A DNA stretch of 64,000 nucleotides from an uncultured Gemmatimonadales bacterium (GTDB lineage: Bacteria; Gemmatimonadota; Gemmatimonadetes; Palauibacterales; Palauibacteraceae), in NCBI GenBank assembly GCA_963783385.1, contig CAWANJ010000006.1, positions 352,001-416,000 on the forward strand, written 5' to 3'. The notes below the pieces were generated by a model, which saw only the letters and a list, made by a program, of their open reading frames with translations, made no database searches and was not told the DNA's origin. The translations under genes and the position numbers were made by a program. This document shows, piece after piece, positions 22,848 to 23,805 of the stretch; position 1 is the stretch's first letter, and the number at the start of each line of letters is the position of its first letter.

Positions 22848-23480
22848 ATGACCAACCGCGACCGGCTCGTGCTGGCTGCGGGAGAGCTCTTCTGCCGTAA
22901 CGGTTACGCCGCCACCTCGGTGGAGGACATCCTGGAACACACGGGCGTCGCCCGCAGCAACTTCTACTACTACTTCGATGGCAAGCTGGACCTCGCCCGC
23001 GAGGTGTTCCGGCGCTGGGTCGGGGACTTCGAGGACCATCTGCGCGGAGCGACGGCGGCCCAGGGCGACGCCGCCGGGACGCTTCGAGCCATTTTCCACG
23101 AGGTGCGCGCGAGCTGTCCCGGCGAGAGGACGGATGCGCGCCACGGCCAGCCCTGCCCCATGGGCCCGCTGGTCCTGGAGCTCGCCCCGCACGACGAAGA
23201 GATCCGCTCCGTGGCCACCGAGTTCCTCGATACGCTGCGGAGCGCGCTGAGGGAGACGATCGCCGCGGGAGCCGGGCGAGGCGAGTTCGACCCCAGGCTC
23301 GACCCGGGGCCGGCGGCTGCGGTGGCCCTCGCCACCCTCCAGGGGGCGCTGCTCCTGTGTCACACACTCGGCCATACCCAGCCGCTCCGGAGCGCCGAGT
23401 CGGCCCTCCTGGAGCTCCTGGTGCCCCGGGAGTCCGGTCCCCGGTCCGACCCGCTCCCGGGGGACGCCTCCAGCTTGTGA
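22848..23480 (+). CDS. TetR/AcrR family transcriptional regulator
   Basis: N-terminal HTH: LFCRNGYAATSVEDILEHTGVARSNFYYYFDGKLDL. Confidence 0.9.
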   Translation: MTNRDRLVLAAGELFCRNGYAATSVEDILEHTGVARSNFYYYFDGKLDLAREVFRRWVGDFEDHLRGATAAQGDAAGTLRAIFHEVRASCPGERTDARHGQPCPMGPLVLELAPHDEEIRSVATEFLDTLRSALRETIAAGAGRGEFDPRLDPGPAAAVALATLQGALLLCHTLGHTQPLRSAESALLELLVPRESGPRSDPLPGDASSL

Positions 23481-23503
23481 GCGGGCGCCTGCCCTTCTAC
23501 GTT
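23475..23503 (+). promoter_or_regulatory. Putative sigma70 promoter driving the intergenic RNA
   Basis: TTGTGA (23475-80), 17-nt spacer, TACGTT (23498-503). Confidence 0.5.
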
Positions 23504-23596
23504 CGGTGACGTTCACGCGCCGCGTCGGGGTGTCGGCGGGGCGCGCCGGACACCGGAGTCGTGCCCGATCCGTCCCTTTCGAAAGGAGGTGATCCA

Positions 23597-23665
23597 GTGT
23601 CTGCAGGGAGTAGATTCGAGCCTGGCTCGGCAAGGGCAAGCGATCGCCTCGGGGTCGCTCGCTAG
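23597..23665 (+). CDS. Putative 22-aa small ORF MSAGSRFEPGSARASDRLGVAR
   Basis: GTG start at canonical spacing from AAGGAGG; TAG stop at 23663-65. No homology evidence available. Confidence 0.4.
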   Translation: MSAGSRFEPGSARASDRLGVAR

Positions 23666-23768
23666 GAAGGGTCACCTTCCGCGCGAGCGTACGAGAACGC
23701 TCGCTCGCTTCGGCTAGTCGTCGCGGCCAGCAGAGGCATCGCGTCGAGTCAGGCCGGAGAGTACCCCT

Positions 23769-23805
23769 ACGGCCGCAGTGTCCCACCGGACGCTGCGGCC
23801 GTTCT
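23769..23805 (+). terminator. Terminator-like 15-bp hairpin
   Basis: ACGGCCGCAGTGTCC-CACC-GGACGCTGCGGCCGT followed by only a weak T tail. Confidence 0.5.

Follow-up and report, generated by a model that had tools for sequence, protein, structure and literature searches.

The locus and its 16S complement

The DNA considered here is a stretch of 64,000 nucleotides (nt) from an uncultured Gemmatimonadales bacterium (contig CAWANJ010000006.1, positions 352,001 to 416,000; hereafter the window, meaning the whole 64-kb stretch), and this report concerns a small unit within it in which a 17-nt complement of the 16S rRNA 3' end runs directly into the start codon of a short open reading frame (sORF). 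The genes lying between 21459 and 26228 are, in order, a CorA-like transporter (-), a TetR-family regulator (+), the unit itself, a VWA-domain protein (-), a DapF-like protein (+) and a MutY-like protein (+), these names being a reading of open reading frame (ORF) translations made with no family search. A preliminary description of the window, based on its letters, had placed a stand-alone structured RNA between the TetR and VWA genes, and the conservation of the unit across families, whilst its neighbours change, supports that proposal.

The same description had identified a 17-mer as the exact reverse complement of the 16S terminus, and comparison with the genome's own 16S gene bears this out at 17 of 17 nt: GAAAGGAGGTGATCCAG, at 23581-23597 on the + strand (sequence of 23574-23605: ...CCCTTTC GAAAGGAGGTGATCCAG TG TCT GCA...), is perfectly complementary to the 3' end of the 16S gene of the same assembly, which reads ...CTGCGGCTGGATCACCTCCTTTCTAG on contig C9 (also given as ...GGAACCTGCGGCTGGATCACCTCCTTTCTAG). 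This segment (23581..23597, +), i.e. the 17c-region or extended Shine-Dalgarno (SD) sequence, is the sole match to the 17-mer in the window at up to three mismatches, against a shuffle expectation of 0.11 (one or more matches appeared in 11 of 100 shuffles at this loose setting), and the 14-mer AAAGGAGGTGATCC occurs at two places in the 3,543,605-base assembly, namely this site and the rDNA; the rre-type unit, as we shall call it, is single-copy in the window's genome. The duplex predicted between the 17-mer and the 16S tail, at -31.9 kcal/mol, is the strongest among all 20-nt segments on both strands of the 64 kb (runner-up -24.5; mean -7.6, standard deviation 3.1 kcal/mol). Next in predicted strength of pairing to the 16S tail are sites at 3656 (-), 56820 (+) and 53316 (-), whose energies run from -24.0 to -24.5 kcal/mol, GGTCCAGGAGGTGATCGAGA being an example.

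Base 17 of the complement (G at 23597) is also the first base of a GTG start codon (23597-23599), separated from GGAGG by a spacer of 7 nt. The sORF that begins there (23597..23665, +) comprises 22 codons (23597-23662) and a TAG stop (23663-23665), is in frame with the listed ORF 23561..23665 and would encode MSAGSRFEPGSARASDRLGVAR. The start codon, the sORF and a sub-threshold match to the Rfam family CC2171 had all been missed by the preliminary description.

Rfam matches and distribution

Rfam families were matched nowhere in the window at their gathering scores, in keeping with the earlier remark that signatures of signal recognition particle RNA, transfer-messenger RNA, RNase P and riboswitches are lacking. 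In E-value mode, the best match within 23380-24000 was to RF01867, 'Caulobacter sRNA CC2171' (sRNA, small RNA), at 28.6 bits with an E-value of 3.7e-4; the gathering score of this family is 75 bits, so that there is a sub-threshold match, and not the confident match to a known family (6S, for instance) that the preliminary description had named as grounds for rejecting its proposal. The other four matches in the same interval scored 11.9-18.1 bits, with E-values of at least 0.69.

Sub-threshold matches to RF01867 are nevertheless widespread in the window's order, where they were found in 37 of 41 genomes, with 0 of 41 above the cut-off (22 of 24 in family f1 and 14 of 16 in family f2, the window's own genome not being counted). 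Leader, complement, GTG TCY, the block GGGCAAGCGAYYGCCTC and a terminator hairpin recur at the matched loci, and in many of them a good U-tract follows the hairpin. A 19-nt motif, searched with at most one mismatch, is present in 56 of 401 sampled Gemmatimonadota genomes, compared with 3 genomes for a reversed-pattern control; by family it occurs in 22 of 29 (f1), 30 of 166 (f3), 1 of 94 (f4) and 0 of 70 (f6), and every motif-bearing Gemmatimonadota genome has one copy.

The exact pattern AAGGAGGTGRTCCAGTGTC was found, taking one genome per species, at no fewer than 120 loci, and since this pattern fixes GTGTC, the Met-Ser beginning of the sORFs at those loci is true by construction. Nearly all of the 80 loci listed by name belong to Alphaproteobacteria, the others being one Gemmatimonadota metagenome-assembled genome (MAG), one Planctomycetaceae MAG, one Cytophagales MAG and one Streptomyces. 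Read from the GTG, the sORFs are of 14 codons in Bradyrhizobium/Afipia (MSFTKRCHLAGIAR), 18 codons in Rhodobacterales (MSRKVLERGVGT...), 21-27 codons in the Caulobacter/Rhizobiales types and 19-22 codons in Gemmatimonadota. The Cytophagales contig (L039) ends in a Rhodobacterales-type rreR start (MSRKVLE...) and may be a mis-binned alpha-proteobacterial contig.

At the Planctomycetaceae locus (L040) the unit is compact, consisting of the motif, a 10-codon sORF and a terminator. The motif, again with at most one mismatch, is present in 28 of 81 sampled genomes of the order to which this MAG belongs and in none with the reversed-pattern control, and the second codon in the 28 matches is TCx in 18, ACx (Thr) in 8 and another in 2. 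Compact units from this group (L040 and L174-L181; genomes G430-G512) have a GTG start, a 10-13-codon sORF of the form M[ST]..DC..GL[HR].. and a terminator. FtsZ was found in 0 of 5 genomes of this order compared with 13 of 14 control genomes, and the order is probably Planctomycetota, judging from that result and the name of one MAG.

In the order of the Streptomyces match the motif is present in 3 of 81 genomes, the seed genome included. At the Streptomyces sp. locus itself (L095, approximately 7231-7249, -) the motif precedes a 51-residue ORF rich in Cys, Ser and Thr; with a similar short ORF on either side, it appears to belong to a group of precursors of ribosomally synthesised peptides, and accordingly we reject it as an rre unit and regard it as an ordinary precursor-like gene with an extreme SD site.

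Conservation of the complement, start and stop

Variants inside the complement are limited to the transitions GATCC to GGTCC and GATCC to GATCT (A-to-G and C-to-T), each of which turns a Watson-Crick pair with the 16S tail into a G.U pair. The tail itself is unchanged in all three of the Gemmatimonadota genomes in which it could be read, two of which have a complement variant, and in 5 of 5 planctomycete genomes, including one confirmed variant carrier. Because the variants preserve G.U pairs while the 16S tail stays unchanged, this comparison of sequences supports the 17-nt pairing as a selected feature. The complement of family f2 reads GGTCC; the 16S 3' end was not found with three sequence patterns in five f2 genomes (G026, G027, G028, G030 and G034), nor did RF00177 give a convincing small-subunit rRNA match in G028 and G030, whose two loci considered here lie on contig C1, and rRNA operons seem to be absent from those five assemblies.

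Of the 56 motif-bearing Gemmatimonadota genomes, 27 use GTG to start and 29 use TTG; the TTG variant loses the 17th pair with 16S and yet remains a start codon. TTG takes the place of GTG in most units of family f3 (L143-L172). The position of the stop is similarly constrained. With exact duplicates dropped, as well as sequences extending less than 200 nt past the start codon, frame 0 ends within 14-27 codons in all 46 unique Gemmatimonadota sequences (14-25 codons in this group) and in 115 of 117 other unique sequences, the exceptions being the planctomycete locus, with 10 codons, and the Streptomyces gene, with 51. For either of the remaining frames, a stop in that range is found in 0-37%. 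Three Gemmatimonadota lineages have a 1-nt insertion or deletion, within or just before the conserved GGGCAAGCG block, that shifts the frame of that block, and the sORF still ends at 19-21 codons, whilst 14 Bradyrhizobium-type sequences use TAA, TAG and TGA at the same stop position. In a subgroup of f3 the sORF stop falls inside a conserved CTGATCC(A)GGACCGA, and the RNA thus has the TGATCC portion of the complement twice.

RNA architecture

The unit is predicted to yield a + strand RNA of approximately 250 nt if counted from a conserved leader, or approximately 300 nt if counted from a candidate promoter. The latter, TTGTGA-N17-TACGTT (23475..23503, +), is weak and overlaps the TetR stop codon; the sequence put forward in the preliminary description does exist, but a consensus scan did not call it. 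Between it and the leader lies a GC-rich hairpin with one bulged G (23529..23554, +), a genus-specific insertion that is present at the same-genus locus L012 and missing from other families; neither the promoter candidate nor this hairpin was seen in the upstream stretches compared for relatives outside the window's genus. The leader, GTCGTGCCCGATCCGTCCCTTTC (23558..23580, +), contains an invariant GCCC at 23563-23566 (columns G23 C24 C25 C26 of the alignment described below), and other Gemmatimonadota loci have similar leaders, GYCCGCCC or GTGCCC.

Downstream of the start codon, two long-range helices would close a domain of several hairpins. The 5' strand of stem A, CCTGGCTCGGC (23621..23631, +), pairs with GTCGAGTCAGG (23743..23753, +), and that of stem B, GCGATCGCCTC (23640..23650, +), pairs with GAGGCATCGC (23733..23742, +) with one bulged base, both 5' strands lying inside the sORF and both helices being backed by covariation and RNAalifold. 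Between them is a set of variable inner hairpins (23656..23732, +) that includes CGCTCGC (23656-62)/GCGAGCG enclosing GGAAGG-GTCA-CCTTCC (23665-80); their conservation does not reach beyond the genus, their number and length differ from one genus to another, and across families they align poorly. The unit closes with a 15-bp terminal hairpin (23769-23802) and a short, U-poor tail (together 23769..23810, +), a presumed intrinsic terminator by homology with relatives, in which clear U-tracts follow the homologous hairpin. The hairpins and stems listed in the preliminary description are all present, with some coordinates differing by 1 nt, and covariation among relatives supports the two long-range stems and the terminal hairpin.

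This architecture was taken from a comparative alignment (A1) and not from the single-sequence minimum free energy (MFE) structure, which departs from it in detail, e.g. in forming a local hairpin instead of stem B. A1 contains 16 f1/f2 loci, selected from 20 motif-bearing f1/f2 loci plus L007 and L021 by dropping L013 (the window itself), L074 (the same as L017), L016 (cut at a contig end and near-identical to L018), L020 (in which the domain's 3' half is missing) and both L007 and L021 (RF01867 matches without the motif); loci of f3, whose inner domain does not align, were kept out. Across the 16 sequences, 3 of 8 inner pairs of stem A show compensatory changes, with 99.2% of cells paired; in stem B, with its 10 pairs, 96.2% of cells are paired and 1 pair is compensatory; and 3 of 8 outer pairs of the terminal hairpin show compensatory changes. 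Taken together these 26 pairs are 96.9% paired over 414 cells, compared with 29-49% in slid controls, with 7 compensatory. RNAalifold, run without a supplied structure, gives the same helices, with 35 pairs of which 13 are compensatory. The G.U pairs in the covarying helices fit the + strand; fold energy exceeds that of shuffles on both strands (z -4.3 and -4.1), and therefore does not on its own choose between them.

The sORF crosses the 5' strands of both long-range stems and ends at the base of the first inner hairpin, and therefore a translating ribosome would have to open the whole domain. As a thermodynamic prediction for 47 homologues, GAAA, the first four bases of the complement, is mostly unpaired (median unpaired probability 0.65-0.89), whilst the GGAGG core is mostly paired (0.02-0.17). 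The invariant GCCC of the leader and a GGGC at 23634-23637, each unchanged in 16 of 16 sequences, could pair as a pseudoknot crossing stem A, a possibility on which covariation is silent because neither side varies.

Relationship to the rre and CC2171 RNAs

The combination of 16S complement, GTG and sORF is already known. According to the available extracts of Hahn et al. (PMC5711450), published in RNA Biol in 2016/17, the rre class takes in rreB from Bradyrhizobiaceae and rreR from the Rhodobacter/Roseobacter clade (Rhodobacterales), is reported from alpha-proteobacteria only, starts with GTG or rarely ATG, and has a short sORF that is conserved within the clade. As reported there, rreB is a 165-nt mRNA whose '17c-region' shares its last base with the GTG that begins a 14-codon sORF; the complement is predicted to be single-stranded at its 5' bases and paired in the rest, an arrangement read as a seed for invasion by 16S (PMC5711450). 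The full-length rreB RNA of Bradyrhizobium japonicum binds strongly, co-sediments with 30S subunits and is found mainly on them, whilst its translation is weak, both the extended complement and the GTG start holding it down (PMC5711450). Changing GUG to UAG lengthened the half-life of rreB from 10 to 37 min, overproduction was without effect on growth, which the authors attribute to the large excess of ribosomes over rreB, and function was described as 'elusive' (PMC5711450). We found no follow-up on rre function in the literature searched.

The unit in the window resembles rreB in its 17-nt complement ending in the G of GTG, its very short sORF, its single genomic copy, the predicted openness of its 5' complement bases and its clade-specific peptide, and it may likewise be transcribed as a small RNA of its own. 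It differs in coming from Gemmatimonadota instead of Alphaproteobacteria, in length (approximately 250-300 nt compared with 165 nt, and 22 codons compared with 14) and in that its sORF, unlike that of rreB, lies embedded in two covarying long-range helices, the closing stems of a multi-hairpin domain; apart from the ribosome-binding site and the two opening codons, the sequences of the two are not similar. Binding to 30S, weak translation and start-codon-dependent decay are features shown for rreB only. The likeness to rreR lies in an extended complement that ends in GTG, a fixed short sORF (18 codons) and a clade-conserved sequence, whereas the sORF sequence and downstream structure are different, as is the RF01867 score (40 bits for Dinoroseobacter compared with 28.6). 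Ordinary SD sites of Gemmatimonadetes, for which the accessible part of a survey gives a typical profile of AGGAGGUGA, 9 nt (PMC10783764), face the same anti-SD tail as the unit does. Whilst such a profile spans 9 nt, the 17-nt complement extends on both sides of it and leaves no unpaired spacer before the start codon. To our knowledge, the rre small mRNAs hold the longest natural SD complement.

The link to Rfam comes through RF01867. The 5' 24 nt of the aligned part of the window, UCGAAAGGAGGUGAUCCAGUGUCU, are identical to the model consensus, and a terminal GC-rich hairpin occurs in both, whereas the middle of the model aligns poorly with the window, and Rfam lists CC2171 as a non-coding sRNA of unknown function. 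Scores against this model were 99.1 bits for a Methylobacterium locus, 91.1 for a Brevundimonas locus, 54.6 for Afipia broomeae ATCC 49717 (a strain in Fig. 2 of PMC5711450), 41.7 for a rreB-type Bradyrhizobium locus, which lies beside a tRNA as PMC5711450 describes for rreB in the parts consulted, and 40.0 for a rreR-type Dinoroseobacter locus. Loci of rreB and rreR type thus fail the cut-off as well, and therefore failing it is normal for genuine members outside the Caulobacter/Methylobacterium branch. From the pattern scan, the sORF reading and these scores, we infer that CC2171 and rre are one class. CC2171 is reportedly expressed as a small RNA in Caulobacter, and its original report is said to be that of Landt et al. 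in 2008. In Methylorubrum, the relevant part of a preprint describes CC2171 as a small RNA seen by Northern blot, of unknown function (10.1101/2022.01.24.477521). The text of PMC5711450 contains no mention of CC2171, Rfam or Gemmatimonadota, and the literature passages that name CC2171 make no link between it and rre.

Accordingly, we consider the unit in the window to be, with good probability, a Gemmatimonadota member of the rre small-mRNA class, partly catalogued in Rfam as CC2171, an assignment drawn from comparison of sequences. The preliminary description had implied a new kind of RNA, which does not hold, in that the arrangement was already published as the rre small mRNAs and is partly in Rfam; of the functions it had suggested, that of a 'dual-function sRNA' comes nearest to the evidence.

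Alternative explanations

The unit might instead be an ordinary small-protein gene, whose 22-residue peptide is functional and whose extreme SD site merely tunes expression. The conserved start, stop and frame length, and the similarity of the peptides within clades, would be expected of such a gene, and RreB and RreR are regarded by their discoverers, in the extracts at hand, as conserved small proteins (PMC5711450). We nevertheless judge this explanation to be unlikely, since the sORFs lack 3-base periodicity. In three fixed-length sets (sORFs of exactly 18, 14 or 20 codons; 37, 14 and 15 unique sequences) third codon positions are no more variable than the others, mean entropies being 0.65 at the third compared with 0.81/0.81 at the first and second positions, 0.20 compared with 0.37/0.32, and 0.85 compared with 1.00/0.99, and synonymous changes make up only 7-17% of codon differences. 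The Gemmatimonadota frameshifts described above swap the C-terminal half of the peptide and leave the RNA block unchanged; the best-conserved residues of the peptide are those encoded by covarying RNA helices; and across phyla and orders the peptides have nothing in common beyond Met-Ser/Thr. In addition, synthetic RreB and RreR were unstructured in solution, as given in the same extracts (PMC5711450). These comparisons point to selection on the docking site, the start codon, the stop position and the sequence and structure of the RNA, and not on the amino-acid sequence. Since the docking site, start, stop and RNA are kept whilst the peptide is free to change, the functional output is more likely to be the encounter of ribosome and RNA than the peptide.

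A purely non-coding RNA that sequesters 30S subunits or 16S tails, be it as a sponge, a hibernation factor or a maturation factor, with the ORF incidental, is improbable on similar grounds, even though it would draw on a predicted duplex with the 16S tail that no other in the window equals (-31.9 kcal/mol), on a peptide free of coding-type selection and on the reported behaviour of rreB, which is mainly on 30S and weakly translated (PMC5711450, in part). Under this explanation there is little reason for the start to be kept as GTG or TTG although TTG breaks the 17th pair, or for in-frame stops at 14-27 codons in 161 of 163 unique sequences compared with 0-37% in other frames. The extracts further report that rreB overproduction left growth unchanged, that ribosomes far outnumber rreB, and that the half-life of rreB depends on its start codon (PMC5711450). 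The preliminary description had favoured a 30S-binding RNA, and this part of its proposal is partly supported, in that the complement appears to be selected and rreB, of the same class, binds 30S (PMC5711450, in part); the ribosome sponge is disfavoured by the maintained start and stop and by the lack of a growth change on rreB overproduction in that partial account (PMC5711450).

The unit could also be a cis-acting element, either the 3' untranslated region of the upstream TetR gene or a leader or attenuator for the downstream gene. It lies 100 nt past the TetR stop on the same strand, no promoter or terminator was called between the two, and the same TetR gene precedes the unit in two same-genus loci, so that the unit may be co-transcribed with it. 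The downstream VWA-domain gene (23963-25276), however, is on the opposite strand and convergent with the unit, so the unit is not its leader, and the unit itself ends in a terminator-like hairpin. Moreover, the neighbours are common to the genus only: in the 49 relatives' loci compared (the window's own, L013, not being counted) TetR is present in 2 and VWA in 3, and elsewhere VWA is adjacent in one locus and CorA in one other, whereas the unit is conserved across families and phyla. Genomic context is likewise described as unconserved for the rre genes of alpha-proteobacteria (PMC5711450, in part), and we regard a cis-acting role as very improbable.

That the unit is a coincidental match, or the remnant of an rRNA gene, as the identity of the 17-mer to the reverse complement of rDNA might suggest, is ruled out for practical purposes by the conservation data, since the similarity to rDNA stops exactly at the 17-mer with different flanks, the unit recurs with covarying helices in many genomes of three phyla, and the reversed-pattern controls are near zero.

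There remain observations that weigh against membership of the rre class and the roles attached to it. At 28.6 bits the window falls short of the RF01867 gathering score of 75 bits, and sequence homology to the alpha-proteobacterial RNAs cannot be demonstrated past the 5' 24 nt; since the universal 16S tail largely determines what the two have in common, the likeness may have arisen by convergence. Among sequencing runs, a search for the stretch returned two contig-type runs of one study (word shares 0.35 and 0.29) and no RNA run. The consensus scan of 23300-24050 returned 0 promoter-like sites and called no terminator, and the U-tract of the terminal hairpin is poor in the window. The partner predicted for the SD core in MFE structures of the 47 homologues is inconsistent, lying upstream in 19 and downstream at varied distances in 28. 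Most of the compensatory changes separate just two families, and related genomes are not independent, so that conservation counts overstate the number of events. Finally, the lack of coding-type selection on the peptide would also fit an RNA-only function with the frame as a by-product.

A putative mechanism

For the unit as an rre small mRNA, a sequence of events can be proposed on the model of the rreB experiments. The single-stranded 5' GAAA(G) of the complement would serve as a toehold from which the 16S tail zips to 17 bp, docking the RNA firmly on a free 30S subunit. The over-long duplex and the GTG start would then keep initiation inefficient, and those ribosomes that do enter the sORF would unwind stems A and B, so that engagement is coupled to remodelling and turnover of the RNA. 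Binding, weak translation and decay are thus ascribed to the window's unit by analogy with rreB.

The alignment also suggests a candidate switch. The 5' strand of stem B holds GAUCGCCUC (the GATCGCCTC part), a near copy of the 16S anti-SD GAUCACCUC, and an alternative helix between the SD core (23586-23594) and this strand has 9 pairs, with 144 of 144 cells paired in 16 of 16 sequences. One pair of this helix is compensatory, being A-U in 8 sequences and G-C in 8: in f2 the SD has G and the block in stem B has C, in f1 these are A and U, and this block position covaries with stem B's 3' strand as well. A block able to pair with the SD is present in 43 of 48 unique Gemmatimonadota sequences. 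The energy of helices of this type is, however, not better than that of mononucleotide shuffles (median z -1.15 in Gemmatimonadota), the sequences that beat 95 of 100 shuffles amounting to 29% of 48 Gemmatimonadota, 32% of 114 alpha-proteobacterial and 11% of 9 planctomycete sequences. A three-way switch, in which the SD pairs with the 5' strand of stem B, that strand pairs with its own 3' partner, or the SD pairs with 16S, may be hypothesised from what is a single evolutionary event.

A broader and more tentative extension, which we would put forward as possible and no further, is a cross-phylum ribosome-docking class (Alphaproteobacteria, Gemmatimonadota and probably Planctomycetota) that keeps the complement, the fused GUG or UUG start, a Ser or Thr second codon and a stop 10-27 codons on, and does not keep the peptide. 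Such an RNA might sense or gate free mature 30S subunits: entering through GAAA, the 16S tail would displace GAUCGCCUC, and the rare translating ribosome would unfold the 3' domain, leading to the switching of an RNA-borne output or to decay.

Significance

What appears to be unreported in the literature searched is the presence of rre-type units in Gemmatimonadota and probably Planctomycetota, the TTG starts and the larger, helix-enclosed 3' domain. That literature contained no report tying rre or CC2171 to either phylum, with the proviso that the supplements of PMC5711450 (Fig. S1, BLASTN) might list further taxa. Because rre-type loci outside the Caulobacter/Methylobacterium branch fall below the Rfam cut-off, and gene finders probably miss them, such units would stand unannotated in many genomes.

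That the arrangement is kept in Gemmatimonadota and apparently in a planctomycete order argues for a general need of bacterial ribosomes, and not one specific to a lineage. The class keeps some interest, rreB having a proven binding to 30S and a function described as 'elusive' (PMC5711450), and independent lineages are now to hand in which this function can be tested. The comparative pattern, moreover, narrows the hypothesis, in that selection probably sees the encounter between the RNA and the ribosome, and not the peptide.

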